Below are positions 9,333 to 56,683 of a stretch of DNA of 64,000 nt, piece by piece. Within the stretch, counting starts at the first letter, position 1, and every line of letters begins with the position of its first letter. The notes below the pieces were generated by a model. It was given only the letters and a program-made list of their open reading frames with translations, made no database searches and was not told the DNA's origin. The position numbers were made by a program, and so were the translations under genes. This DNA comes from Azolla caroliniana (taxonomy: Eukaryota > Plantae > Polypodiophyta): assembly GCA_043228905.1 (NCBI GenBank), contig JBHGNT010000002.1, forward strand, positions 26,722,001-26,786,000, written 5' to 3'.

Positions 9333-11205
9333 CCGTGCAGGTAATAGCTCCTCCCGGCTCATCTTGTTGTTCCAGTCCACCGTTGTCGAGGTATTCCTCG
9401 CGGATGCGTGGAATGAGGCGGGGTCTCGGGGGTCTTGTACCGAAGAGCAGGAGACAAAGGAGAAGGGAAGGGACCCACTACGTGTGGGCGTAGATTCACA
9501 GGGACACGGCCCTTCGACACAAAGACGCAAGTGGGACACCGACGCAGAGAGACACGAATGTATGTATATATATATTAACAAGGGCAAACAACAAGAAGCG
9601 CGAAGTCGGTTACAACCGAACAGGCCGTCGAACAGATGTCGATGCCTGTTCGTAAACGCTCAGAAAGAAAGGAGTAGGTTGGAGGTGCTGCCGAAAGCAC
9701 TCAGGCATTCCTCAGAGCAGCGCGAGCCTCCCGAAAACCTGCACAGGAAGAAGCTACAGAGTATGGAAGAGAGAGAAGCCTTCGGCCGACAACCCGACAA
9801 CACTTCGTCCTCTCTAACCGCGATCCCCTTCCTCTTCCCCGCCTCCCTCCTTTTATAGGCAAGAAAGGAGTCGTTTCCTATTAACTTCCTACCTACCGAA
9901 TCTACCTACCTAGGATCTTCTATGTACCTAATTCTCTCTTATGTACAACATAAGACGTACGTGCATGAAGAGCCGGTTCATACGCTCCGGTGCACCGATT
10001 CCGCTTGTGGACGGTTTTCTTCACGACACCGTGGCCCATGAGGAGATTGTCTGATCTGTTGGCATGATCGGCTTCTGGCTATACATTAGCTCTGCCGGCA
10101 TGAACCCGGTTACTGAACTATGCGTAGTTTGGTCCACCCACAACGCATAGGGTAAGAGCCGCGGCCAGTTCCCGACATGGCCTCCACACGCCCGTACCAA
10201 TGCTTTGACGATGGGTCCGTGTCCGCGCTCCACCTTCACGTTAGCCTTTGGATTGTACGTCGTGGTGAGAGAGAGTTTAATTCCTAGCTGGTCAAACAAC
10301 TCTTCCACCTCTTGCGCGTCCAATTCCCCGCGGTTGGCCACGATCCTACCTACGCACCCGTACCGGCATACCACTTCTTCGATTAGAAATTGGCACACGG
10401 CCCCGGTCGTTTTGCTCTACAATGCTCGGCCTTCCACCTGGTTCGTCAGGTCCTCCCGAGCCAGCACCAGATACCGCATCTGCCCTACCCCCATCAGCAT
10501 CGTCACCAGATCCACCATCCACTTGAAGTGGATGGTCGGAGGGTAGGTCGGGTGGAGCTCGTCCCGATGTTGGACTATGGAGTGCACCTGACAGCTTTCG
10601 CAAGTCGTCACGAACCGATGCACGTCCCGGTATAGTCCCGGCCACTAGTACTTCCCCTTTAGCTTCTCGAATGTGGCCCACGTCCCGTGGTGTCCGGCCC
10701 AGGGACTCTCGTGGTACGCCGTCAACAATTCTTCTTGTTCCTCTTTCTTCACCATCACTCGGAGCGGGATGCCCTCTCTCTTCTTTGGGTGCTTCCATAT
10801 GCTTCCATCCCATAGAAAGAATTCGTACGCTTTCTTCTGAATCCGGTTGGCCTCTTCCTTCGTCCATGCCGCGTCCGGTGTCATTGCCTTCAGGAACCCG
10901 CCGATCTGGAGCCACTCCCCGTCATACTTGCTCTCGTCGAATTCGTTAAGCGCCGGACTGCTCCCCTTTCTTGTTGTTACGTTGGTTGACCCGAAGAAAT
11001 CCTCGTCGACTTCCTCGTTATCCGAAACCATGCCATCCTGGTCATTGAACTGCGCCCTTGAAAGCATATCGGTTATGGCATTATCTTTCCCGAAGATGTG
11101 TCGTATCTCCGGGTTCAGGGACTTGATGTATGCGATCCACTTGAGCATCACCAGGTCTAGGGTCGCACATCCGGAGATCATACCTAGAATCGGTAGGCAG
11201 TCCGT
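9333..11205 (-). mobile_element. Ty3/gypsy pol fragment (RNase H end, integrase), frameshifted, host of nested insertions
   Basis: TDCLPILGM...WIAYIKSLNPEIRHIFGKDN..DMLSR (RNase H), YHESPWAGH...CESCQ (integrase HHCC), WMVDLV...AREDLTNQVEGRAL...YNPKANVKVERGH (integrase core). Confidence 0.9.
9384..10028 (-). mobile_element. Solo LTR (645 bp) inserted in integrase, 4-bp TSD ccgt
   Basis: Minus strand reads tgtcgtgaag...cctcgaca, with ccgt at 9380-9383 and 10029-10032. The integrase frame rejoins as ISSWAT|VDWNNKMSREELL. Confidence 0.85.
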
Positions 11206-12660
11206 TGTCGTGAATATTTTCGTCCATAGGGGGAAACCAGGGTGGAATGGGCAAGTCAGTGGTGTACAACATGTGCACACGTATACTAGGGAATGGTGTA
11301 TAGAAATAAGATGGGAAATTTTATCCCACATTGTAAGGTCCCTCCCTTCTTGGGCTATAAAAGGAAGGGAGGGGTCACTTATGAAGGGGTTACCTATTTT
11401 ACGTATGAGAGGTATACCACTTAGTCTAGAGTTCTTACCACATTAGGGTTAGGGTTTCAGTTAGGGTTTTCTCATAGTTTGGTGCGGTCCATGCGGCCAC
11501 CATTGTTGTAATCATTCGTTCGTTTTAATATAACTTGTTGAGTTTCTTGCCTCCGCCGATCTCTCCTTCTATGTCATGGTCTTATTCTTTCCTCTTCTCC
11601 TCTTGAGCTAGGCCTCCATATTATGTCTTATTCTTTCTCCTCTACTCCCTAGTCCGAGACCCCCGTGGTCCCACCCCTTCTACACACACGCGCGTAACAA
11701 CGCGACATCTTTGGTGAACCCGACGTGAAGGGTGGCAAGGGAGCATGGAGATGGAAGAAGACTTCGACTTCAACGAGATGATGGCAAAGATTGTGATGGA
11801 AGCCGGACGGAAGATGGCGAAGCGAGATGCGGCTCAACAAGCCGTCAAAAGGGTGGTCAATCGAGTCGACTAGTTCAATGGGAATGAGGTCCTAAAATTT
11901 TTGGGAGCCTACAAGGCCGACATGGTGAAATGGGGCGTGGACGAGGCGATGCGGCTAGAGTATTTTCCTCGAGTGGCGGTCGTATCGGTGCACAAGGAGG
12001 TCAAGGAGCTACGAGAAGCTCATGAGTCGTGGGTGTCCTTTGAGGGAGCCCTATTGGAGGCGTACGGGTACACGGAACCGGAAGGAAGAGGTCGACATGA
12101 GTTCGATCGGTGGGTGGCGTCGGCGAGGCGTCATCGGAGCGCGATGGAGGCATTCCGAGAGTTCAAGCGCCGTTTCTCTCAACTCTCGGAACGAGATCGG
12201 AGATCGGTGGGGGCAGACAAAGTCCTCTTTTTTTTGAAGACGATACATCAAGAGGAGAGGACAGACATCTTATTCGAGCTTCAAGATGATTATGGAGCAC
12301 ATGGTCTCACCGAGGAGTGGTCCGAGGTGGAATGGGTGTGCCGGCAACATGATGTGAGGCGGTCGGCCACAACACGGCCCGCGAGCGGTGGAGAAGAGAG
12401 AGCGGCGAGTGAGTACGCACTACCGCCAGAAGAGAGCTCAACGCCAAAATGGTTTAGAGGAGCTCGACCTAGAAGCACTAATACGGGAGACATGCAAGCT
12501 TGTGAAGGGGAAAATCGAAGCCGAAGAAGGGCTTATTATGGATTCAGGCCGAAGGCGATCGGAGGATGCGGAGGAAGAAGCCTCCTTAAGCGTAGAAGAC
12601 GGGGGCCTATACGGAGGCCAGAAGAGCGTACGACGGCGACATGGGAGAGGGTGCGGAGCA
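11206..12660 (+). mobile_element. 5' LTR (11206-11707), tRNA-Trp PBS and gag of a Ty3/gypsy-family element, truncated
   Basis: LTR tgtcgtgaat...cgcgaca. PBS tggtgaacccgacgtga at 11712-11728 is complementary to the plant tRNA-Trp 3' end. Gag-like ORF from ~11901 (YKADMVKWGV...LEYFPRV...WVSFEGALLEAY). Confidence 0.85.
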
Positions 12661-13599
12661 AGAAAAAGCTCCTTGATCTTCAAGGTGTATGTCGTGATGG
12701 ACATCTCCCTTTGTTGAATGTTGTTAAACTCTTGGCGGAGTTGAAGTCTTCTTGCGGTTGTGTTCACCGCGAAAATCTTTCGTAGATTTTCCCATGCCTC
12801 CTTCGGCGTCTTGGCTTCGCAAATGTAGCCGAGCATGTGATCGTGAACACATGTCGCCAAGCAATACATCACGTGGCTTGCAGCTTGCTCCCATGTCGCG
12901 TATCCGGGAGCCGTTTCGATGGGTCGGTCTTCGTGCACTCCTTTGATGTAGCTCCAATAGCCTTGTCCGACAAGGTATTGGTGCATCTTGTACTCCCAAG
13001 ATGCGAAGTTGTTTCGATCCAACTTCTCGGTAGGGAGAGCGCTCCCCATTTGAGTATTCATTATGTCGATTCTTCTTCTTCTTCTTCTTCTTCTTCTCTC
13101 TTCGAATGCGAGCTATGTAGCGAAGCTACGATGGAGATGAGTTGGTTCTTGGTCGTCGGCATAGGACACAGCGCACGCGGATGGGCTAGATCGAGCTACC
13201 AACCTCGCTCTGATACCATGTAAAGAATCAAGAGATGGATTCTGTGCAACGGAATAGATATGAATTGTGTGTGTGTGTGTGTGTATGAGAGAGACAAGGA
13301 GTAAGACACAGAGAATACGCAAGGTAAAGTATATTAACAAAGGAGAAAGACTCAACATTATACAAGGTGGGAGGAGGGTGCTTTATATAGTCACCCTCTC
13401 TCTTCATTAACTACAAGACTCATGGAGCATGGGGAATGTGAAAGCTCATAAGTTATGTGTCATAGAATATGATTCTATGACTTATACTAAATGCTAGAAT
13501 ACAAAGTGGTGACATAATGGTGACTCTTGACCGTTGGAGTGTCTATTCACTCTCAAGGTGAGTTCACACACTAGACCAAGTTGAGCTTGATTCTCAACA
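12661..13599 (-). mobile_element. Ty1/copia 5' end: LTR (13219-13599), tRNA-iMet PBS and truncated gag
   Basis: Minus strand LTR tgttgagaatc...tttaca followed by tggtatcagagc (13207-13218). Gag reads EKLDRNNFASWEYKMHQYL..QGYW...AKTPKEAWENL (copia gag/UBN2). Confidence 0.9.
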
Positions 13600-15877
13600 G
13601 CACCCAATTCATCTCAGACGCATCGGAAGCTACAGATTGGTTTTCTCTCGCATTCTCTGCCCTAAGATTAGTGGATTTTTGGGGAAACGGTTGACCCCTA
13701 GCAAAGATCTGAACTGTCTTTGTGGGGTTACATGCTAGGAGGTTGTTCTCGAACTCAATGGTTTCTGACCAGTCGTCCACAAGAGGGCTGCCTTCTTGTT
13801 CGTGCACTTTTTGTGTGTATGCTTTGATGCAAAAGGTTTTGTTGTTTTTACGCATATAGATTGTATCGTTCCCAAAATCCATTACAAGGCGGCTTATGCG
13901 TAGGAATGACCTCCCTAGTAAACACTCGTAAGCCACATGATTGGATAATTTTGTGATGATGAAGGTGAGATTGAACTCGACCCCGTGGATAGTGAAGTAG
14001 TGTGCCGGGATCATGCCTTTTGGCCATTGGATGGACCCATCTGCCATTCGGATTTTGACGTCTGAAGGAAGCATTTTTGGGCTCCCCCACTTACACCAAC
14101 ATTCATAGTTGACTATACTTACCCTTGCTCAAGTGTCAATGATCACATCACACGTCGTGCCGTTGATGCAGACGGGGAGAGTGAAACTAGTATCGTCGCT
14201 CTCGAAGTGAGCTTCACATATATCTACTGGTGTTCCTTCAGGTTGTTTAGGGATTGTGGTAGTATGAGGGACATGGGTGTGTATCTTTTCTCCGTAACCT
14301 GCTGATAGGCCTCCGTTGAGGTGGCAAAGGACATCGTGCCATGGTTGGATGTCGAGTTTGAGCAGCTCTTCAAGTGTGAACTATATTTCCTTGGCGAGGA
14401 TAGGTCGTAGGTGGGGCTTGTCAATCACGAAGGTGCCGGTGTAGCTCTGTACTTCGCGTAATGTGAGACATAATTTTAAATTTAATATTTGATGGAGCAG
14501 GGTCATGTTGACTTCTTTGATTGGGGTAGGTTGGGAGATGGTGGTGTCTGTTGGTGTTACGACGAGGGAGGGTGTATCCATGTGTTGGGGTGGAGGATTT
14601 ACCCATTCTTCGAGTTGGTCGAAGTTTAGGCTCGGGAGACTAAGCGATCCTTTGAACTATTCGTGTCATATGAGTTTGATGTACTCTTCGACCTTTTGTT
14701 TTTCAGCCGCTGGGTTTCGGTATGCTGCTAGGTGTGTTGGTAGCCCTTGGTTAGGGTTGACGAGTGTTGTTTCTACATCTCCCTCCGATTCTTGCTCTTG
14801 CTTTGAGGTCTGCGTGGATACATTTTTTTTGGATTTTCGTCTCTTACGCATAGTCGTGGGGAGGCCTTGGTCGTGATACTTTAAATTATGAGCTACTCTT
14901 TGAGTTCGTGTGATGACGTTGGCGCCAACCGTTGATGGTACGATGGATAACATATTTGCACTAATCCGTTTCTTTTTTTCTGGGCAATCAGGTACTAAGT
15001 GTTCTTTACCACACCCTGTGCATGATGCTTCTCTTTGGAACCACTCGATAAGCTTGTGTGACTGTTGGGTGAGACTTTGTACCGGTGGTTGTGGGGGTGT
15101 TTCGAGTGGGTGGTGTCGTGGTCGTTGTGCCATCCGGTTGTAGTACTCATGTTTGGTTGGGCACTCGCTAATCATGTGTGGGCCTTGGCAATTGAACATT
15201 TCAATTCTGAGCTTCTTAGACCATTATTATTGCGATATCCCATCGACAGGCCCCTTTGTTCTCCTCTCAAGATGTACACTAGTATTTGGTCGCCTTCGAA
15301 GTCAACGAAGTGGGAAAGCACCTCTTCTTCAACATCATACTCCCAGTATGAGTCTTCATATTCGGGGACGCCCCACCCAACCTAAGTTTGGTTATCGATG
15401 CCGTATTCTAGTTCGGCAAGACGAGCGCCAATACGCGGTACTGGGGTTGTTGGGGAAGTATTTCTGGTAGTTGTGAGCAGCTAAGCAGTGGAGGTGAGTG
15501 TGGGTGCTCGACCATTGGTGTTTGGCTATACCTTCCGTTTGGGGCTTGCCAGCAGTTCTCTTGAGAATGCATCACGAAGGCTTTGCACCAATTACAGTAT
15601 TGCAGCTATTGTTGGTGGAGGAGAGGGCACTCATGCCCCATGTGATGGCCATGGCACACCGTACACCTTGCATTTTCTCTTTGGCGTATGCTTCGGGTCT
15701 TTCTATACGGGGTGGTCTCGGTGGCGTGGGTGGAGTGGGATCCGAGGACTTCTCACGGTTGTTCATAGGCGCTTGAGTGGGTATCCGTAACCCACTCATT
15801 GAATCTTCGAAAGTCATCATTACTGTGCAAGCTTTAGCGCGAATGACCGACACATCCTGGCAATCAGGAAATTTTGA

Positions 15878-33816: not shown

Positions 33817-36800
33817 TGTAACACATCCGATGTGTTGAGGGGTTCCATGATTGGAACCACAACACCCCACCTCGACGGATTGAGGTGAGGGCCTTTCTCG
33901 ACGGATAGAGAAGGCGCCCATGACTTGAGGTAAGAGTCATGGCCTTCTAAGTCTTCTCGATGGATGGAGAAGACACCCATGACTCAAGGTGTGAGCATGG
34001 GGCTTATGGTACATGTACCATTCCCAAGGTAAGGTGCACATGGGGAATGTGACATCTAGTGCATCTAATACCATAGTACTCAAGTACCTAAGTGGGGAAA
34101 GGGAATCTCCCTAGGCATTTGAATAATCTTTAAATGAAGTCAACTACCTATGTGGAAGAAGGGAATCTCCCTAATGACTTTTATTAAATACCATTAGGAC
34201 GGATGTAAGGTACTTATGTACTATATGGGAAACTTATGAGAGAAAAGGAGGATCTTGTATATAAGTTGGACAGAGGGTGGTTGGGCGGAGTTCAACATAT
34301 CCAAGTTCTCTCCCTTAATTATATTTTCCCTTAGTCAAAAAACGTAGACACGCGAGTTCGAATCCAATCGGCGATCCACCCTTATCGTGAAATTTCGGTG
34401 GTGTTACATGGTATCAGAGCGAACTCACTAAAACTACACTTGCGGCTTGTGGGAATCGTGAATCTTAAGGTAGTATCCTTTCAAATAGCTACAATGGAGC
34501 TCGAGATGCCCAAATTTTGGAGAATTTCATTTGGGATTGCGAGCAATTCTTCCTAGCCGCCCATATCCTCAAGGAGGCGGACCTAGTCTTCCATTGCTCA
34601 ACCTTCTTGGCCGGGGATGCTAAACTATGGTGGCGCAACTTCGTGGATGATAGCATTCGACAAAAGGGGCCCATGCCCGTGAATACGTGGGAAGAATTAA
34701 AGGAAGCTCTCAATAAACAATTTCTTCCTTCTAATTCCGAGTGGAAGGCTCGCCAACAACTTGATCTACTTCGTCACACGGGCCATATCAAGGATTATAT
34801 TAAATCCTTTCAGGCTCTTATGTTACAAATCCGCTCCATGGGAGAAGAAGATCGTTTCTTTGCGTTTACCAACCGATTGAAAGAGTGGGCCCAAAACGAG
34901 CTACGCCGACAAAATGTAACGACTCTTGCGGCCGCTTACGAAGCGGCGGATCGCCTGACCGATTGGCATTCTCAAGGTGGCTCCTCCGATGGCAAAGACA
35001 AAGAAAAGAGGGGTCCTCCAAATTTGAAGGCACACAATACTCATCCCTTCAAGAAGGTGGCTTATAATTCTCAAGGAGGTGGATCTCGACCCCCCATCAA
35101 TGGCCAAAATGTTGCAAAGAAGTTTCCTTCCGCGAAGACCACGAATGTGAATTCCTTCAAGCCTAAGGATGTTGCCGTGAAAAGGAAGTTTGAATGTTTC
35201 ATTTGCCAAGGTGACCATTTCGCTAGAGATTGCCCTCTCAAAGGCCAACTCCACTCACTTGTTAAGGCTTCGGATGACGACGCGAATGATCGAACCATGG
35301 GGCACATCAAGCGTTTGTGTGCGTTTCGTGAGGTAAAGAGTGAGCATTCATTACTTTATGTTAGTGCTCTAATCAATGGTCGTTTGTGTCAAGCGATGGT
35401 GGATACGGGTGCGTCTCACGAATTCATGACGCCGACCCTCGCCAAAGCATGTGGGCTACGTATGGAGGTGAATTCCAAGGGCACTTGGAAGACCGTCAAC
35501 GGAAAGGAGGAGCAAGTGGGGCGGATTGCTCCTAATGTTGTGGTTACTATTGGAGAGGTGACCGTGCGCGTTGAATTTAGCATCGTCGAGATGGACGATT
35601 TTGATGTGGTTTTAGGTCAATCTTGGGCGAGATTGGCGCGCGCACTACCCTACCCTTTTGGTTTCAAGACGTCATGCCCAACACTTTACCAAAGGAGTTG
35701 CCTCCAAAAAGAGAGGTTGATCATCACATCGAGGTGGTGCCGGGATGCACTCCTCCCGTGAAGAGTCCTTATCGCTTAAGCGTTGCCGAGAATGCGGAAT
35801 TAAAGCATCAACTTAACGAGCTATTAGAGGCGGGATTCATACGCCCTTCTAGATCTCCTTATGGTGCCCCGGTGCTCTTCGTCAAGAAGAAGGATGGAAG
35901 CTTGAGAATGTGCGTCGATTATCGAGCATTGAACAAGCTCACTATCAAGAATCGTTACCCTCTCCCCAACCTTTGAGAGATGTTCGACCAACTAGGGAAG
36001 GCGCGGTACTTCACCAAGATGGATCTTCGTTCGGGATACTATCAAGTGAGGATCGCCGAAGGTGATGTGGAGAAAACCTCCATGCGAACACGATATGGCT
36101 CATATGAGTGGCTCGTAATGTCGATGGGCTTAACCAATGCCGTAGCAACCTTTAGTACACTCATGAATCAAGTGTTTGGGCCGGAGCTCGACAAATGCAT
36201 TGTGGTCTACCTCGACGACTTGCTTGTCTTTAGCCCTACTTGGGACCAACACTTGAAGGATGTTGAGATGGCTCTCCAAATATTAAGGGAGAACCATCTC
36301 TATGTGAAGAAATCCAAATGTGACTTTGGTGTGGAAGAAGTGTACTTCCTCGGCTTCAAAATAGCTCGTGGTGAGCTACAACCCGAAGAGGAAAAGCTTC
36401 ATGCAATCAAGGAATGGCCTACTCCTCTTTCTAACCTTACTCCTCGACTCTCTACTCCTCTTTCTAACCTTACTAAAAGTGGGAAAAAGTGGTTTTGGTG
36501 TGACAAGTGTGCTTGTGCTTTTGATGCCTTAAAAGAGGCATTGTGCACGGCGCCATGCTTGGCGCTACCCGACTTTGACAAGCCCTTTGAGCTTCATATT
36601 GATGCATCCGATTATGCCATGGGTGGAGTGCTCATGCAAGAAGGAAGGCCGGTGGCATTTGAGAGCAAGAAGCTCATGGATCGGGAGACGCGATACCCCA
36701 CCCATGAGAAGGAGATGGCGGCCATCGTCCATTGTCTTCGTACATGGAGGCATTACTTGATGGGGAGGCACTTCACCGTCCACACGGATAACATCACATC

Positions 36801-39052
36801 AACGTACTTTGCTTCACAACCAAAACTCACCGCAAAGCAAGCTCGGTGGCAAAGACTTCCTTGCCGGTTATGATTTCGACCTCAAGTACAAGCCCGGAAA
36901 GCAAAATGTGGTAGCCGATGCTCTTAGTCGAAGGGCCCATTTGGCGGTCATGCATGTGTTGGTTGATACTAATATGTTGCCAACCCTCAAGAGTGCACAT
37001 CATGGTGATGAATATGCACAAAAGTGTCTTCGTTCGTTTGCTAATGGTGAAAAGGTGACCCACCTATCTCTCAAAGATGGGGTGATCTACTTCAAGCAAC
37101 AAATACTCTATGTACCTCAAGTAGTGAGGAAAGAAGTAATGTATGAGTGTCATGACACATTGTGGACCGGACACCCCGGTGGGGATAAAACCATGGAAAT
37201 GTTGACTCGTAGGTACTTTTGGCCACACATGGACCAAGAAGTTCAAGCCTATGTGAGAGGATGCCAAGTGTGCCAACAAGACAAAGCCGAAAGATGCAAG
37301 CCCGCGGGATTGCTTCAACCCTTAAGCATCCCGAATCAACCATGGGAATCCCTTAGCATGGACTTCATAATAAGCTTGCCGGAGAGCCAAAACTACACGG
37401 GTATCTTCGTCGTCGTGGATCGACTTACGAAGTATGCTCACTTTGTGGCCTATGAAAGCCCCGCGAATGTTGAGTATGTGGCAAAACTTTTCTTTGCCAA
37501 TGTATTCAAATACCACGGTCTCCCAAGAGAGATTATTAGCGATCGTGATAGCCGCTTCACCGGTAAATTTTGGTCCACACTTTTTGCTTTGATGGGTACT
37601 AACCTCAAGTTTAGTAGTTCCTATCACCCACAGACTGATGGTCAAACGGAGAGGACTAATCAAATATTGGAGGATTACCTTCGCCATTATGTTAGCTTGG
37701 ATCAAAAGGATTGGTCCCAATACCTTGACATAGCGGAGTTCTCCTACAACCTCCATAAGCAAGATTCCACAGGATTTAGTCCCTTTGAACTCAATTATGG
37801 GTTCCAACCTTTGTCTCCCGGAGACCTTATGGCGTTACCCTTAGCTAGCATTGTTCCAAGTGCCAACATCACAATGAATAGGTGGTCCACTCGCCTCAAC
37901 CAAGCTAATGAGGCTATGGAGAAGGCTCAAGCTCGGTACAAGAAATATGCTGACCTCAAACGTAGGCATGAAGAATATGAAGTGGGTGACTTAGTGTTCG
38001 TCAAATTGGATAGCGAACAATTTATTCTTCCAAAGGGTATCACTCCAAAGCTTGCTCGACTGTACGATGGTCCCTTTCCCATCATCAAGAAATGATCTCC
38101 TTTGACTTACAAAGTCAAGCTACCGGAACACATGGGTGTTCATCCGGTGTTTCACATTTCCTTGCTCAAGAGGAGCTACATGGATGAAAACCATGAGGAA
38201 ATGGCGGTTCGAAGGGGTCCCGCTTTGGTGATTGACAAAGGTAGCGACTACGTCTTGGAGGCCATCCTTCGTCATTGGGATCGACCAAACCAAAATGGGC
38301 CTAATAGGCTCTACTATTGCCAATGGAAAGGCAAACCCACGGAAGAGAACTCGTGGCAACAAGGCGTGACCTTGTGGCAATTTGAAGATGTGGTTAATGC
38401 ATACAACTCCCATCACCCTTTTAAAATGAAAAGGGGACGCCTTCTTCAAAGGGGGGAATTGTAACACATCCGATGTGTTGAGGGGTTCCATGATTGGAAC
38501 CACAACACCCCACCTCGACGGATTGAGGTGAGGGCCTTTCTCGACGGATAGAGAAGGCGCCCATGACTCGAGGTAAGAGTCATGGCCTTCTAAGTCTTCT
38601 CGATGGATGGAGAAGACACCCATGACTCAAGGTGTGAGCATGGGGCTTATGGTACATGTACCATTCTCAAGGTAAGGTGCACATGGGGAATGTGACATCT
38701 AGTGCATTTAATACCATAGTACTCAAGTACCTAAGTGGGGAAAGGGAATCTCCCTAGGCATTTGAATAATCTTTAAATGAAGTCAACTACCTACGTGGAA
38801 GAAGGGAATCTCCCTAATGACTTCTATTAAATACCATTAGGACGGATGTAAGGTACTTATGTACTATATGGGAAAACTTATGAGAGAAAAGGAGGATCTT
38901 GTATATAAGTTGGACAGAGGGTGGTTGGGTGGAGTTCAACATATCCAAGTTCTCTCCCTTAATTATATTTTCCCTTAGTCAAAAAACATAGACATGCGAG
39001 TTCGAATCCAATCGGCGATCCACCCTTATCACGAAATTTCGGTGGTGTTACA
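33817..39052 (+). mobile_element. Full-length Ty3/gypsy chromovirus (Galadriel-like), inactivated
   Basis: LTRs 33817-34408 and 38460-39052 (tgtaac...gttaca), TSD tcccc, PBS tggtatcagagc (34409-34420), PPT before 38460. Contains gag (ENFIWDCEQFF..DAKLWWR, CFICQGDHFARDC), protease (VDTGAS), RT (YLDD), RNase H, integrase and chromodomain. Confidence 0.97.
34517..38464 (+). pseudogene. gag-pol polyprotein of the chromovirus, with stops, frameshifts and deletions
   Basis: Split into ORFs 34517-35761, 35623-35976, 35980-36873, 36809-38095 and 38102-38464. In-frame TGA at 35974 and 38093. The last segment has a chromodomain (YVLEAILRH...YYCQWKG..EENSW). Confidence 0.93.
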
Positions 39053-44574: not shown

Positions 44575-47500
44575 ATGGCGACTACCTTCGCCAAGCCCGA
44601 GAATGCTCTCAAGCGCGCTGAAGGTAGGGTTTCTGCTTGCTGTCCTCGTCCCCTTCCCTTCCTCTATCTCCTCTTTCTTACTTGAAAATTCATGCTCGTT
44701 TTACGTCTATGTATCTATGTCCATCCCTGTGCGAGATCGGAGCAGAGTTAGCAACCTATATTGCACTGGGAAAGATAACTTTTACAAGCTTCACGTTTGC
44801 TGTTAGACTTTGGATTTTTAAGTGTTTTAGTTACTCTCGTTTTTTGGTGTTTTACCTTTAACGGGCTCGAAAACTAGTACTTTCTCCTTCATTCACCTCC
44901 ATAGAGACGGGATACGATGTCCTACATATTATTAGATCTTACCGTATATATCAATATTAACTCTGGTTGTTGTATGATTCCTTGAATTAACTTGAGAAGT
45001 ATGGGAGATTACACGCTCACATGTAAATAAATCAGAGTTTGAATGCCGTATTTCTCATTGACCTAACTTGAAAACTATTGGAGCTGATATTACCTTTGTT
45101 GTAGATCTTTTTACGTATGTGCAAATCAAACTTTCAATGTTTTTTTATGTTTCCTTTAAATGACAAACTTTGGGAGATTGTTTTTCATATATGCATGTTA
45201 GATTTCAAATAACGATTTATGTTCCCTAGAAATGTCTAAAAAGCGATGAGCTGTAGTTTTCTCTTCACCTTTCACCCTATTACTTAGATGAAGACCTACA
45301 GGAAATAGTCTACATATTTGATCTTTCTACATGTACAAATTGGGGTGCTTCGATAACGATTATACAAATGAGAGTTTAGGCTTATTCTTCTCAGCATTTT
45401 AGTGTGGGACATGGACAACATATTATATATTTCTACATGTAAAAGATGGACTTTTCATACTGTTGCATGCTTCCTTGAAATCGAAATGGCTTGAGTACCA
45501 TAGATTTGGTGCTTGCATACTAGATCTTACCACATGTACCAATTAGACTTCAAATGCAGCACCATATTTAAAATGTTGTTTGGTTACTCAAAGTGAATTG
45601 TGAAGAATGAGAATTGTGGTATGAACATTCGGTAGTCTACATGTTCAGGTTATCCTTTGGATGTTGTATGCTTTTTTACTTCAAGCCTGGCAGCTACAGG
45701 AAAATTGCATGCGTGTTAACAATTATAGGATGATCTATAGGGGAAATGGTCTGAATTCATTGTCTTTCTAACAACACAAATCAGCCTTGGATAGCAGAGG
45801 TTAACTGTAGCATTTGGTATAAATGGTGGATGATCACAATTTTTTTGGAACTGAGTTGCTACCACTGTTTTGTAAGATTCCTGAAACTGAAATTAAAGAG
45901 AGTTTTCCTCAAGAAGATGCTCATCCATGCCTGAAAGATACTGGAATTGATGTGAGTGAATGACTATTGACTGTCATCCAGTGATAATTGAGCCGTTGGA
46001 GAGTTTTAACTTAATTCATTACAGTTTGGTTCAAATTTTAGTTTATATGCCCATATTTTCAATCCAAAAGAGCTATTATCAAAGCATTGCTGAATGGAAA
46101 GAGGAGCTTCACAAGCTATCCATGTCTTTTGGAAATTCTTCCCCCATTCTTTTTGGAACTGAGTTGCGACCATTGTTTTGTAAGCTTCCTGAAATTGAAA
46201 TTAAAGAGAGTTTTCCTCAAGAAGATGCTCATCCAAGCTTGAAAGATACTGGAAACTTGATTCATTACGGTTTGGTTCAAATTTTAGTTTATGTCCCCAT
46301 ATTTTTAATCCAAAAGAGCTATTATCAAAGCATTGCTGAATGGAAAAAGGAGCTTCACAAGCTATTCACGTCTTTTGGAAATTCTTCCCCCATTCAAGTG
46401 TTCTAACATTTAGCACTTCTGTTTACTTAATCCTGAAATCTCTTTTTGGTTGGGCTTCTAATTTTGCTTTATTTTCTTTCGTAGAGCTTATGAACGTTGG
46501 ACAAAAGCAAGCAGCCTTGCAAGCTTTGCACGACCTCATCACCTCAAAGCGTTACCGAGCATGGCAGAAAACCTTGGAAAAAATCATGTTCAAGTATATC
46601 GAACTATGTGTCGATATGAGAAAGGGCAGATTTGCCAAAGATGGGCTTATTCAGTACCGTATTGTATGCCAGCAAGTCAATGTTTCTTCACTGGAAGAAG
46701 TTATAAAATATTTTTTGCAACTCTCAAGTGAGAGAGCAGAGAAAGCCCAGGCGCAAGCAACAGCTGAAGTTACCTTGGATGTTGAGGATCTGGAGGCTGA
46801 GAAGAGGCCTGAAGATCTGATGGTTAGTTATGTCAGTGGTGAGAAAGGAAAAGAACGATCTGACAGAGAATTAGTTACCCCTTGGTTCAAATTTCTTTGG
46901 GAGACATATCGCACAGTGTTAGAAATTCTAAGGAACAACTCCAAATTGGAAGCCCTATACGCAGTAAGGTTTCTTGGGCCATCCACTATGTATAATGATT
47001 CTTATTTTTAATCTTCTTGTTTTTTAATGATTACATTTTATGCAGATGACTGCACATAGAGCTTTCCAATTTTGTCTTCAATACAAGAGAACAACCGAAT
47101 TTCGAAGACTGTGTGAAATTCTCCGCAATCATTTGAGCAATCTCAACAAGTATAGGGACCAAAGAGATAGGCCTGACCTGACATTGCCTGAGAGTCTGCA
47201 GCTATACCTTGATACCAGATTTGAACAACTAAAGGTTGCAACTGAACTAGAACTATGGCAGGTATTGGAAAGATCGTCTTAATACCTCTTTTGGCATTTT
47301 GCAATCTCAATTATAAAACTTTCCCTCAGTTCGTTTGGCTAGTCATCTTCTTCTTAGTATTTTCTCACATAATGATGTATGAAATTCTATTTATAACCAG
47401 GAAGCCTTCCGATCAGTGGAGGATATTCATGGTCTCATGATAATGGTTAAAAAGAGTCCAAAGCCTCAGATGATGGCTGTTTATTATGCAAAGTTGACAA

Positions 47501-50500
47501 AGATATTTTGGGTTGCAAATAGCAACTTGTTCCATGCTTATGCATGGTACAAGCTATACAACTTGCAAAAAAGTTATAACAAGAATTTGACACAAAAGGA
47601 CTTGCAGTTGATGGCATCATCAGTCTTGTTGGCAACCATATCAGTTCTACCTTATGATCACAAGCATGGGGCTTCTCACCTTGAGCTTGAAATGGAAAAG
47701 GATAGAAATGTACGCATGGCCAGCCTTCTTGGCTTCACATTGGACCCAAAGAAAGACGCAAGAGAAGTTGTAAGTTGATCATGTTGAGTCTTATAACTGT
47801 TCAAAGTTTATGAATTATTTCATTGTTTCTATTCTAAATTTCTGTCAAATTTTCATTCATTCCTTTTGTTGACACTCATGATTGTGATTTCTATTTTAAC
47901 AGCTGTCACGATCAGCTCTTCTTTCAGAACTTGTGAGTATTTTGTTCCAATAATAATAATAATTCTATATGAGTAGACAGTTGTTTAAACTGCTAGAGTT
48001 CTTATGTATTGATGAGAAATTCTTTTGTTATTTAGATCGCAAAAGGTGTCATGACATATGTCGCACCTGAGGTTAAGGATATATACAACCTTCTTGAGAC
48101 TGAGTTTCACCCTCTGGAACTTGCTGCCAAAGTCCAACCTTTACTTGCTAAGCTACCAAAAACCAGTGAGAAGCTGTCATCTGCTTCACCTATTCCTGAA
48201 GTTCTTTTGGAGCAGTATATTCCAGCTCTTGAAACATTGACTACCTTAAGAGTGTTGCAGCAGGTAATTTCCACAAATTTATATCGGCAATTCGACTGTT
48301 ATGAGTCACGACTTTGCACACATTTGACTCCCATAAAATGTTGATTCTGGATTTTGGATGTTTTAGGTTTCTCAAGTTTATAAAACGATGAAAATCGGGT
48401 CTCTTGTGAAGATGATTCCGTTTTCTGATTTCTCTGTGGTTGAAAAACATGCTGTTGATGCTGTGAAGTACAACTTTGTTCAAGCAAAGATTGATCATTT
48501 GAAAGGCGTAGTCCAGTTTGGAAGCCAGGTTTGCTTTAGATGTGTTGAATGTGTCGTAACTTACAATTCCATTATCAAGTTACTGATATTAGAATTTTGC
48601 TAGCAGGATTTAGAGTCTGAGAAAATGAAAAATCATCTCACAATTCTTGCAAAGCGCTTAAATAAAGCTGTTAGCTTAGTGGGTTCTTCAGTTCCTGAAA
48701 AAGCATCCAAGCAAGTTTTGCCGTACCCAGCTTTATGTGCAGCAGTTGAGAAAGAACATAAAAAGCTTCTCGCTAGGAAAGTCCTGATCGAGAGAAGAAA
48801 GGAAGAACAAGAAAGACTTATGCTTGAAATGGTAACTACTTATGTTTCTTCTACTCTTAGAATTTTCGATTCTGATTTCATCTAATTATCTATTCCTTTC
48901 TGAAGGAACGAGAAGAGGAGTCAAAGAGACAGAAACAGCAAAAGCTATCAGAGGAAGCCGAGGCAAAACGTCTAGCCGCAGAATCCGCAAAGCGGGAAGA
49001 GGCGCGAATCAGGAAGGAAATAGAAGAGAAAGAACTGGAAGAGGCAAGAATGCTCCTTGCGGAGGCAGAGCGCAAGAAGGGAAAGAAGGGCAAGAAAACA
49101 GCAGTAGATTCTGTAAGATATTTCAAAAGCTACTAAAGCATCATGTAGTTTTTGGATGAATACTCCTAGTTGGATTGAAATATTTAAATTCTCTTTCAGG
49201 ATGTAAAAGTTACAAAACAAAGCCTGATGGAAGAAGCTTTAAATGAGCAACAAAGGGAGAGACAAGAATTTGAAAGGAAAATTATGAAGCTTACAAAAAC
49301 AATGGACCATCTTGAGAGGGCAAAAAGAGAAGAAGAAGCCCCTTTGATTGAAGCTGCATATCAAAAAAGTCTCGAAGATGATGCAGTTTTCCATGAGCAA
49401 CAGCAACAGGTGAGTGTCTAGACTCTAAATCCACCCTTTTTGATACATTCGAGGATTTTTTAAGAATTTTATTTTGTGTCATTATTCAGCTTGCCATTGA
49501 GAAAAGCAAGGAGCAACATGTAGCTGATTTGGCCGAGAAAAACAGGCTTCTTCGCATGTTGGATGATAAGGTAATATTCAAGTGATTTAGATTACTTTCT
49601 GATGAGATGGAGAACGTTATGGTTGAGGTTGGAGATGGTTTCCATGCACAGAGCAAGTTTCAAGAACAGGTGGTGAGCCGAAGAAAGGATGAATTTGAGA
49701 GCAGGAAGAAGGAGAGAGATGAGAGGGTTGCTCAATTGAAACAGAAACGGTCCCAGGAACGTCTTCTGAGAAGGAAAATGGAGTATTATCGCCGACAAGA
49801 GGAAATCCGTATCGTGAAGCTAAGAGAAGAAGAGGCAGCAAGGAAAAAACAAGGTCTATATATTATAGATTGTTAATTTCTGGTTCTTTACTTGCAGAAA
49901 CGTTTTTCCAGATTCTATTTAGATGTCTTTGTAAATTGTGTGCTTATTATATTAGGATTTAATTCTTAGATTGCATGGAGGATGGAAACTCTGTTTACTT
50001 GTCTCTAGGAGCCTTCCTGAATAAGCACCAATCACGCGGTTAGGCATGTCCTATAGCTGTTTGCTATGTTATGGATGACCAAGCTGATCTTTAGTATTGG
50101 AGCTTCATACTTATGGTGTGCGTTTATATGTTTACTTTCTTTTTTCATAGTTCACTAGCTTTGGTGAAACAGATTGAGGTTTGCATTCTGTCCAAGTGTG
50201 CTTACATTTAGGCTATGCATTTATATGTTTACTGCCTTTTCTTGCAGAACTCCAGATTTTCATTGTTCTTCTGAATTGTCCTATTGAATGCCTTGTTTTT
50301 ATGTACTATAGTAAGTATATTTATATAGTTCTAGATGAAACTGAATTTGACGTGTGTAAGTCTGCATTCTATCTCTTTATGCTTACATTTAGGTTACATT
50401 CTCATTTGGGGTTATCTAGTTTGTACATGTGCTCTTTTTTTAAAACGTATTTATGTATGTACACATGGATATTAGATTCCTTAGATGAACTATTATTCAG

Positions 50501-51068
50501 GCTTTTTTTAATTAGAAATCTTTTCTGGATATATAATCTAGAGGAGGAATTGAAGAAGAAGGAAGAAGCAGAAAAGAAAGCGAAGTTAGACGAGATAGCT
50601 GCCAAGCAGATGCAGAAAATTCTGGAGATTGAGGCAAGAGATAGAAGAGATGCCAAGCTATCAGTAACACCCGAAACCAAATTTGTTCCTTCAGCCTTGC
50701 GAAAGAAGACAGAGTTTCCTTCAAGTGAACAACCACCTGCGGAAAAGTGGACAAGTTCAAGAGGTGATGATAGGGCGGGTCTGCCAAGAGTGCATGGTAG
50801 AGATGATGAGCATTGGGGAAAAGGTGATCAGCGTATATCTTCTTCTGAAAGAGTTGTTGCTCCGAATAATGGCGTCGGTGGTGAGAAATATGTGCCTCCG
50901 ATCGCCAAAAATGTGCCTCCGAGTGCAAAAGATGTGCCTCAAAGCACAAAATATGTGCCTCCTAGAGGGAGAAGTGAGTTGCCACCTTCTGTAGGGTCAA
51001 CAAGTCGTTCTGATAGTGCTCCACGTTCTAGAGCTTTTGGTAGTGGTCAGCGTAGGGGTCCAGGGTAA
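44575..51068 (+). CDS. eIF3a: Eukaryotic translation initiation factor 3 subunit A, 13 coding exons
   Basis: [16 protein letters not shown]|[35 protein letters not shown] is the conserved eIF3a N-terminus. GT-AG exons: 44575-44623, 46485-46963, 47046-47261, 47401-47769, 47903-47932, 48036-48263, 48367-48528, 48607-48831, 48906-49112, 49200-49409, 49490-49570, 49652-49853, 50542-51068 (TAA). Confidence 0.97.
45843..46395. repeat. Tandem duplication (~305 bp and ~245 bp copies) in eIF3a intron 1
   Basis: ttttggaactgagttgc...gaaagatactggaa...attcttcccccattc occurs twice. The second copy lacks ~60 bp. Confidence 0.9.
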
Positions 51069-51413: not shown

Positions 51414-51727
51414 TCCACAACACAGAAGTGAAAACGTGACAGTAACAAGATATGATTTGGTTGGAATGATTTTCTTGGAATTGAAGTTAAAAGTTCTTTC
51501 ATATCAGTGTATTATGCATAAATGTGAAGTTTACAAACGTTTCATGGATATACAGGTGCAAATGTGTGGTGCCACAACACAGAAGTGAAAACGTGACAGT
51601 AACAAGATGTGATTTAGTTGGAATGTTTTTCTTGGAATTGAAGTTAAAAGTTCTTTCAAATCTGTGTTTTATGCATAACTGTGAAGTTTACAAAAGTTTC
51701 TTGGATATACAGGTGCGAATGTGTGCC
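51414..51727. repeat. Tandem duplication, period ~157 bp, downstream of eIF3a
   Basis: ccacaacacagaagtgaaaacgtgacagtaacaagat...ggatatacaggtgc occurs twice. Confidence 0.9.
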
Positions 51728-55006: not shown

Positions 55007-56683
55007 CTAGATGTAGGCACAATTGTCGGGACGTTGTACGGTGGGTACGAACGGGTTGTCGCAATCGGTATAGATCCCTAGCAAAGCGGCTGTGTTGAGG
55101 AGGCTAATGACAGTGGCGGGCGGGAGTGTGGGCGTGCGTGAGAGGAGTAAGAGGTCGGTGATCGGCCCCCGGTCCTGGTCCGCATTGTTCGCATCGCATG
55201 TATAGGCGAGCAACACGGAATACTCCCCTATGCTCGAAGGGACAACCCCCTCCAATGCTATGATCTGCAAAGACTCCGCCAATGCTGTGGTCGATACGGT
55301 TGTTGAGGCATCGGTGGACGCGGACACGGACTCGGACTCGTTGTCCATGCTCTCCATCATCATCGTCGCCATCATGGCCTCCTTGGAGAGCCTCTCGACC
55401 TTGGCATGCCCCCTCCTCACCACCCTAGAGCTAGTGGTCTTGTTGGTTGCCGCGTGTAGATTCGTCCCCGTGCTTGTTATCATCGGTCGGCTCATCCGAT
55501 AGTCGGCCGCCATCATCTCAACTAATGGTCCTTCGATTGTGATCAACTGGCTTTGCAATGTTGTCGCCTACGTTGGGGGGCATATTCCAATAAACATCAT
55601 GCTAAGGTCAAGGGGTTGTGTTAAACTATGAATGATTCTCCAACACTAGGAAAGGAAAGGAAGGCTTTTGATTGAGCCCATTTCCCAATGGGAGCATGTA
55701 TACATAAATAAAATAACCTTTCATGTGAACACACTCAAAAGTCATATTGAAATGATAGAATGAGAGCACAAATATTGTATTACCTGCCCAATCACATCAT
55801 CTATTTCTTGATTGATCAACGACAACGCATCCCCTAGATAGTCACGTGCGTTCGAATTCTCGGTCGCCGGGATATGAGAAATAACTTGGTTGAGGACGCT
55901 ACTTGAGAATGTGAGGTTGTACACGAGTAGGGAGGCAAGCTCGGTAACATCGTTGGTCGCCACGCCGACACTCGCCCGCACGGCACGTAGGACCGGGTCT
56001 AGGGCTGCGGAGGCACCTGCACCTTGGTTGAGACTTGAGGCGATGATTCCGGTGGCAATGTTGATGGAGCGCGAGAGGCGTTCGATGTGGGAATTGATGC
56101 CGCCGACTGAGGCATTGAGAGTCGACACGACTTGGTTGAGTGTGGACGCATCGATTGGGTTGGAGGACGAGAGTTGTTGGGCTACGTCCGAGATGCGGAG
56201 GTTCGCCTCGTAGATCTTGCTTTGAGGGGAGATCATGGAGCACATGCGAGCTGCACTTGAGCACACGCTCGCGGACAACGACGCAATACGCGTCAATGCG
56301 GACAACGTTTGTTGGCCTTGAACCACTGGAACTCCCGATGTGAGTACATTGACGGTCACAATGTTTTCGGACGAGGCAGAGGTATCGAGGGTAAAGTTTG
56401 TGTGGGTGCATGCCATGCCTAGCTCGTTACGAAGTTTGTAGTGGGCAGTGGAGCCGATCTCGTAGTAAGAGCCCAAGAGAGTGTTGAGATCAAGACTAGA
56501 GGGGGTGGGGGGCGTGGGACATGTCTTCTTTGGCTCTAACGCTCGATTGCAAAAGTCAGTATTAAAAATGGAAGGTGTATCGCCTTTGCTAATTGTAATG
56601 AATGTAGGTTGAGCTACTAGAATCACCATTGCAAGCACATTTAGTATTGAAGGGACATAAGTATTAGCCATCACCCCCTCCAT
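55007..56683 (-). CDS. Putative secreted lipocalin (ApoD/Blc-like) with a large internal helical insertion, 2 exons, ~486 aa
   Basis: Exon 1 56683-55784 (alternative ATG 56671), phase-0 GT-AG intron 55783-55568, exon 2 55567-55007. Hydrophobic N-terminus ILNVLAMVILVA. SCR1-like LDLNTLLGSYYEIG, then CTHTNFTL. SCR2-like YSVLLAYTC, SCR3 LLLSRTPTL and a C-terminal Cys. Confidence 0.8.

Follow-up and report, generated by a model that had tools for sequence, protein, structure and literature searches.

A lipocalin gene of Azolla caroliniana very probably encodes an ApoD-type barrel with a four-helix bundle in the loop between strands C and D, both barrel and bundle being predicted on a relative of the protein. 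Lipocalins are known as compact single-domain barrels. The gene lies in a 64-kb window (the whole stretch of DNA analysed, 64,000 nucleotides), and the insert architecture is real, conserved and apparently undescribed, within a partly named group. Regarding function, we favor, with a probability of roughly 0.45, an extracellular carrier: the predicted secreted barrel would carry a hydrophobic ligand outside the cell, while the bundle would act as a rigid docking arm that holds the pocket to the wall, a membrane or a partner protein, a role in which we infer both the ligand binding and the docking.

Gene structure and genomic surroundings

On the minus strand, the gene runs from an ATG at 56683 to the end of the stop codon at 55007, with a product of 486 aa. 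The earlier note had proposed a two-exon ORF of about this length, which is borne out by a phase-0 GT-AG intron and by a homologous junction in fern gene models. Exon 1 (55784..56683, 900 nt, aa 1-300) encodes a signal-like N-terminus, strands A to C and most of the bundle, and exon 2 (55007..55567, aa 301-486 and the stop codon) encodes the end of the last bundle helix, strands D to H, the C-terminal helix and strand I. The 216-nt intron between them (55568..55783), whose position is common to the fern relatives, has a GC content of 37%, compared with 52% in exon 1 and 57% in exon 2. The window contains a single copy of the insert-bearing gene.

Splicing of the 55783-55568 intron is predicted from homology. 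Gene models from Adiantum and Ceratopteris, as well as the 492-aa relative P0017, run unbroken across the 300/301 junction of the window protein; the DNA of a further relative (L003) has a GT donor at the same position; the exon-1-only ORFs of relatives stop just past the donor position in nine cases out of the nine examined, counting P0022, which duplicates part of P0003; and P0019 starts at the acceptor position. The full-length fern gene models hold both lipocalin halves in the same order, so the two-half ORF is not a product of chance. In the covered parts of exon 1, the codon changes are 27 synonymous and 4 non-synonymous relative to L004, and 53 and 23, respectively, relative to L001, placing the gene, at the level of sequence, under purifying selection. 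A gene-prediction artefact was rejected. Fern-type copies with 44-100% identity to exon 1 were also seen in metagenome assemblies (L001-L004, P0003, P0004, P0006 and P0012), and the protein of L002 is identical to that of the window over 236 aa.

An alternative in-frame AG, at 55646, surpasses the acceptor used in its pyrimidine tract and leads to a stop after 25 codons, while intron retention leads to a stop after 13 codons. The acceptor at 55646 is possible as a minor form, giving a truncated product. That the gene mainly yields such products, by either route, or is decaying, would fit this tract and the divergent strand E region, but is hardly credible given that the reading frame of exon 2 is intact with a GC3 of 72% (59% in exon 1), that the close relatives P0018 (95%) and P0019 (51%) both keep this exon, that the changes in exon 1 are mostly synonymous and that the 300/301 junction agrees with spliced fern models.

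Elsewhere in the window, a multi-exon eIF3a gene occupies approximately 44600-51068 on the plus strand (PF22591, E 1.5e-58 at 46340-47011). About 4 kb separate the end of its last long ORF from the stop of the convergent lipocalin gene, no functional link being implied, and two diverged direct copies of about 150 nt, detected by eye, lie downstream of the eIF3a gene at ~51415-51725. On the plus strand, 34469-38095 contains gag-protease, reverse transcriptase and integrase-like ORFs in several frames, which we take, by eye, to be a broken Ty3/gypsy retroelement, and 10645-15223 presumably holds further retroelement-like pieces. A tandem repeat of an 18-codon (54-nt) unit, open in two frames, is located at 1822-2643 on the minus strand.

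Lipocalin barrel, cysteines and predicted secretion

The lipocalin motifs quoted in the earlier note are all present. The N-half (56327..56551) contains Cys45, a Cys55-Pro motif, strand A with GSYYEIG, strand B with Cys92 and a sequon at Asn96, and strand C. The C-half (55010..55270) contains strand F, strand G with Cys424, strand H, the C-terminal helix, Cys469, strand I and Cys483, and the third lipocalin region is present as the Arg ending strand H (LLLSRT). As had been noticed from the sequence, Tyr replaces the Trp of the GxW motif in GSYYEIG, with an aromatic residue retained there and the motif otherwise intact. For comparison, we aligned 34 rows chosen as near full-length, the window protein included: Tyr occupies this position in all five fern-clade rows, and Trp in the remaining 29.

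What had been described as a Ser/Thr/Met-rich linker turned out to hold strand D (VVRRGHAKV, 55397..55423, aa 349-357, aligned to strand D of the model described below), probably strand E, and then an enlarged acidic loop. The candidate strand E (aa 364-371) and the acidic Ser/Thr loop (aa 372-399) together form a Met-rich stretch at 55271..55378, in which the assignment of strand E is uncertain: we placed it by eye from P0019, and the aligner put it further along. The distance from strand D to strand F is 42 residues in the window protein versus 16-29 in the other 33 rows. Between these strands the window protein has six methionines, the other rows zero to three. As a side lead only, these methionines may recall Met93 of ApoD, which lies at the open end of the barrel and reduces lipid hydroperoxides, as stated in excerpts of PMC3316614 and PMC8530192. 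Because strand E is hard to place and Tyr replaces Trp, the pocket of the window protein may have diverged.

Sequence profiles tie both halves to the lipocalins. Compared with a profile of un-inserted lipocalins, the N-half scored 30.9 bits and its shuffles no more than 2.5. For exon 2, the score with un-inserted lipocalins was just 2.2 bits; the profile built from 17 non-fern members of the insert-bearing family gave this exon 72 bits and the whole window protein 209 bits. No Pfam lipocalin model reached threshold in either exon, scanned separately, or in nine fern-clade relatives (best E 0.23); PF08212 was matched by 18 of the 23 full-length members at E up to 0.1, and several non-fern members passed the threshold. 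PDB sequence searches with single exons gave nothing significant. With a profile of the 23 full-length members, the match to human ApoD (E 8e-22) fell into two segments, residues 5-61 and 60-152 of the chain, which meet at the C-D loop; sandercyanin, Blc and TIL came next.

The fold was predicted on the relative P0017 (492 aa) from an alignment of 43 sequences, the window protein, 54% identical to it over 167 barrel columns, being read by homology. The model (pLDDT 84.3, pTM 0.84) is an eight-stranded antiparallel barrel with strands at 62-70, 81-90 and 113-122, helices at 128-351, and further strands at 360-368, 376-381, 398-404, 416-424 and 430-438, followed by a helix and a short ninth strand. 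Its best match is ApoD (2hzr; Z 20.6, rmsd 2.1, 159 of 161 residues aligned), Z values being 18.5 for Blc, 18.2 for TIL and 16.1 for VDE, and sandercyanin and ApoD head the Foldseek rows. The proposal of an ApoD-like fold is thus upheld on this relative by both the structural and the profile match, as is that of an eight-stranded barrel with helices between strands C and D. An earlier model of a relative, from eight sequences of which only four had the C-half, resolved the helices only, with a barrel pLDDT below 50, and gave no Foldseek match at E <=0.001. Atlas feature matches for a fern member were all below 0.9, the rows being lipocalin-labelled or clusters of about 200 aa.

The predicted signal peptide spans approximately aa 1-34 (56582..56683), with a hydrophobic core at aa 13-24. 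The best 12-residue hydropathy of the window N-terminus is 2.92, and a value of at least 2.0 was found in 22 of 28 insert-bearing rows. The protein contains eight cysteines and five sequons. Together with the Pro/Ser-rich extensions of some members, these features suggest that it enters the secretory route and is likely glycosylated. In two Taxus proteins (P0025 and P0082) and two Selaginella proteins (P0030 and P0076), the signal peptide is followed by long Pro/Ser-rich stretches that resemble modules of wall glycoproteins.

Cys55, Cys92, Cys424 and Cys483 sit at ApoD motif positions. For the other cysteines, co-occurrence was counted in 31 rows, three rows without an N-terminus being left out. 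In P0017 numbering, Cys145 of the insert and Cys464 of the C-terminal segment agree in 28 rows, and Cys34 of the N-terminal segment and Cys152 of the insert in 27; the Cys145/Cys464 pattern tracks one clade, the land plants, and therefore counts as about one evolutionary event. These patterns point to four putative disulfides, two ApoD-like and two extra, the latter pinning the first bundle helix to the N- and C-terminal segments of the barrel. Pinning of the first helix to the barrel exterior, as the cysteine pairs suggest, would favor two domains packed into one compact body over a free stalk. Of the helical bundle or stalk that the earlier note had envisaged, the bundle is predicted on the relative, while a free projecting stalk is less likely, the cysteine pattern speaking against it.

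The window protein shares with ApoD and sandercyanin (2hzq/2hzr and 5ez2), the best sequence-profile and fold matches of the insert-bearing family, the eight-stranded barrel, the C-terminal helix, four aligned cysteines, the strand B sequon and a signal peptide, both barrel and signal peptide being predicted in the window protein. It differs from them by a helical insert of about 230 aa where ApoD has a short C-D hairpin, by four extra cysteines, by an enlarged acidic D-F region and, as in the rest of the fern clade, by Tyr in place of the GxW Trp.

The inserted bundle and its possible roles

The inserted helical domain (55502..56314, approximately aa 124-322) spans the intron, and its first helix bears Cys141 and Cys148. 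Strands C and D of the window protein lie 229 aa apart, and about 200 aa of this stretch are helical, the helical part continuing through LITIEGPLVEMMAA; the claim that helices split the barrel between C and D is therefore kept, whereas the length of ~185 aa given for them is not. Bundle helices have a pLDDT mostly of 85-97 in both models of relatives, and we read the insert as four long predicted up-down helices of ~45-60 residues each, the first and last kinked. The window insert alone scores 44.5 bits against the profile of 17 non-fern members (the shuffle control having been made on the barrel part), and so the insert is homologous across the family. By itself it gave no usable feature match and no nameable structural match. 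The best fold match of the bundle is Maquette-3, a designed single-chain four-helix bundle (Z 17.0-17.7, rmsd 2.4-2.8), a likeness that is geometric because this is a designed protein. Besides AhlB and PMEI, many bundles unrelated to the insert come after it, at Z values usual for helical bundles. Like Maquette-3, pectin methylesterase inhibitor (PMEI), invertase inhibitor, AhlB and ClyA share the up-down helices of the insert (Z 10-17.7), with identities of 5-11% and no homology shown.

The C-D hairpin is one of the four loops at the mouth of the lipocalin pocket. According to excerpts of PMC3316614 and PMC8530192, three of these four loops in ApoD are hydrophobic, with a presumed role in contact with lipid surfaces, lipoproteins and membranes. 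If the open-end loops of ApoD do contact lipid in this way, the bundle, sitting in one of them, would replace a surface-contact site. Conservation in the bundle is weak except at one Cys and at a Gln-Ser-Gln patch where helix 2 ends (16-21 of the 26 rows keep it), and so no docking face was identified.

The helices might instead open on lipid. We considered an exchangeable apolipoprotein-like module, with which the protein would ferry bulk precursors of the cuticle, spore wall or zygote wall as a small particle. Four of the five helical segments of the window insert are more amphipathic than their shuffles (0, 6, 9 and 27 of 1,000 shuffles were as amphipathic as the respective segment, and 144 for the fifth), weak Pfam matches to ApoLp-III (E 0.0075) and Apolipoprotein E (E 0.072) were each found in one of the 23 members, and the length and up-down topology of the bundle resemble those of apolipoprotein bundles. 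Amphipathy, however, is expected in any bundle, the charged residues of the inserts (8-23%; 12% in the window) are below those of exchangeable apolipoproteins, both ends of the bundle are tied into the barrel with the first helix probably pinned by disulfides, and the best 50 fold matches listed for the bundle include no apolipoprotein; we consider this reading unlikely.

The matches to plant inhibitors raise the idea that the bundle, attached to a lipid pocket, is an inhibitor module of the kind found in the cell-wall inhibitors of pectin methylesterase and invertase. These inhibitors are also secreted plant four-helix bundles, and the fold search returned PMEI 1x8z (Z 12.1-12.4, rmsd 2.4-2.5, 121 of 151 residues aligned), 1xg2_B (Z 11.3-11.6) and the invertase inhibitor 1rj1 (Z 10.6). 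According to the search tool's own guidance, however, Z values below about 13 are common for helical bundles; moreover, the identity is 7-9%, the window bundle is much longer and no PMEI family appeared in Pfam scans of the 23 members, the window exons and the fern relatives, which leaves an inhibitor module quite doubtful. We hold in equally low regard a soluble sensor, in which the barrel ligand would shift the bundle and a receptor would read the shift. The position of the insert at a pocket-mouth loop, the pTM of 0.84, which suggests a defined two-domain arrangement, the Gln-Ser-Gln patch at what topology indicates is the barrel-proximal end of helix 2, and weak fold matches to the TorS and McpS sensor bundles would be consistent with it, although the predicted disulfide clamps would restrict motion.

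A ClyA-like alpha-pore-forming defence protein, with the barrel as its lipid-targeting head, is very unlikely. The bundle does match AhlB (Z 13.5, rmsd 2.9, 187 residues aligned) and ClyA (Foldseek E 2.4e-3, TM 0.39 by target, rmsd 7.4), but both matches are within the generic-bundle range, both bundle ends are tethered and the window holds no second copy. Furthermore, a hydropathy of 1.6 is the cut-off for a membrane-spanning segment; the best 19-residue value in the window insert is 1.25 and 4 of 28 inserts reach 1.6, so that by this measure a conserved membrane-spanning hairpin or tongue is absent from the 28 inserts. The docking-arm carrier is the reading that we favor.

Distribution and relation to known plant lipocalins

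A profile of eight fern-type sequences retrieved 59 clusters among 1.84 billion representatives. Because the eight-sequence alignment was poor in the C-half, this profile covered 309 positions, mostly N-half and insert, and it was through this search only that prokaryotic insert-bearing forms were tested. We looked up the organism for 25 of the 59 clusters, and 14 gave one. The named members come from land plants (Ceratopteris, Diphasiastrum, Selaginella, Marchantia paleacea, Calypogeia, Riccia, Taxus chinensis and Ginkgo) and algae (Chara, with two, Closterium and Mesotaenium); one is a transcript filed under the amoeba Leptophrys, which probably came from algal prey, and the named hits also include a compact Ceratodon protein without the insert. 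An Adiantum member was found by a separate homologue search, and a search with a diverse alignment returned two proteins. The earlier note had called for homologues retaining the insertion, and these were found in Chara, Closterium, Mesotaenium, liverworts, lycophytes, ferns, Ginkgo and Taxus. Flowering plants were absent from the 14 named hits of the 59 clusters, which suggests that the insert-bearing family was lost in angiosperms. A viral scan revealed no relative of the insert-bearing lipocalin.

In the 34-row alignment, the C-D distance is 195-237 aa in 25 rows, 135, 149 and 313 aa in three more, and 49 aa in one Chara row with strand C unaligned; it is 3-6 aa in four compact lipocalins and 47 aa in a fifth, with strand C unaligned. 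The shortened inserts, by C-D distance, of P0040 (Ginkgo Gb_35276, 135 aa), P0049 (49 aa) and P0051 (149 aa) reflect either errors in the gene models or a bundle partly lost in nature, and these proteins would be useful for probing its role. P0033, a 1321-aa protein of Closterium sp. NIES-65, apparently strings together three insert-bearing lipocalin units in tandem, with a universal stress protein domain after them, and may represent merged gene models; P0058 (1591 aa) consists of tandem compact lipocalin repeats of ~177 aa each.

We built a tree from 169 barrel columns, with two repeats of P0058 as the outgroup and with TIL, CHL, ApoD, Blc and the seedless plants-specific lipocalins (SLLs) of Physcomitrium, Pp3c11_15530 and Pp3c1_13830, left aside. 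The window protein is sister to P0017 (100/95), within a starred clade with Adiantum and Ceratopteris (100/99), and the land-plant insert-bearing members group at 91/92, unstarred. The data do not reject the 29 non-compact rows as a single clade (p-AU 0.50), a result compatible with a single origin of the insert-bearing form. The compact Ceratodon lipocalin takes no resolved position, and the barrel tree does not separate ancestral compact moss lipocalins from secondary loss of the insert. An insertion specific to this genome was rejected, a homologous insert being found from Chara to Ginkgo and Taxus. Judged by its sequences, the insert-bearing design is an old streptophyte family.

SLLs have been described as predicted secreted proteins, mostly with a single Blc-like domain, that occur in charophytes and bryophytes, are seldom met in vascular plants and seem to have disappeared from seed plants, with function unknown; the survey searched with TIL, CHL and two Pfam models (text of bioRxiv 10.1101/2025.03.13.638958). 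The window protein, predicted secreted and Blc/ApoD-like, likely belongs to this group, and the compact Ceratodon lipocalin retrieved alongside the family is of SLL type. In contrast to the definition of SLLs as confined to charophytes and seedless plants, the insert-bearing form occurs in ferns and lycophytes and also in Ginkgo (Gb_35276, with a short insert) and Taxus chinensis; some long members may already be in the SLL tree. In the body text of that preprint, figures and supplements aside, the words "insertion," "helical" and "fern" do not occur. The novelty claimed in the earlier note thus holds, as far as this text goes, for the insert, whereas the secreted ApoD-like plant type had already been named SLL. 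Plant TIL, CHL and the VDE domain, as well as bacterial Blc, share the barrel, and the solved chains of TIL, VDE and Blc (162-179 aa) all lack the insert; the same preprint text locates TIL to the plasma membrane and CHL to the thylakoid lumen. Excerpts of PMC8420045 cover chordate lipocalins with plants unmentioned, and in those of PMC13214078 only the plastid lipocalin is mentioned for a fern, one reference title aside. Our literature search, in whose scope subscription papers mostly did not fall, found no description of a helical insert in lipocalins.

The window locus adds to this family a divergent fern branch, with Trp replaced by Tyr, an enlarged acidic loop and no visibility to Pfam. 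The reported rarity of SLLs in vascular plants may be due to the survey's Pfam models missing the fern clade. The fern members, which escape Pfam, and the existence of gymnosperm members bear on the picture, as given in the preprint text, of secreted plant lipocalins rare in vascular plants and lost in seed plants. That charophyte algae and gymnosperms alike retain a bundle of ~200 residues in one loop implies selection for a second function, and it suggests to protein engineers that the C-D loop tolerates a whole domain. A broader view, improbable as a whole, is that of a streptophyte-wide extracellular lipid handler in one chain: the pocket would pick up a specific hydrophobic molecule and the bundle would deliver it to, or signal through, a partner in the wall or membrane, the design having arisen once before land plants, been kept from Chara to Ginkgo and yew, and been dropped in flowering plants. 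If true, this would show a whole domain naturally inserted in a lipocalin barrel, and would supply a missing part of early land plant lipid export or signalling. With members in the transformable Marchantia, Ceratopteris and Closterium, the family offers a candidate, open to testing, for how non-flowering plants handle lipids outside the cell.
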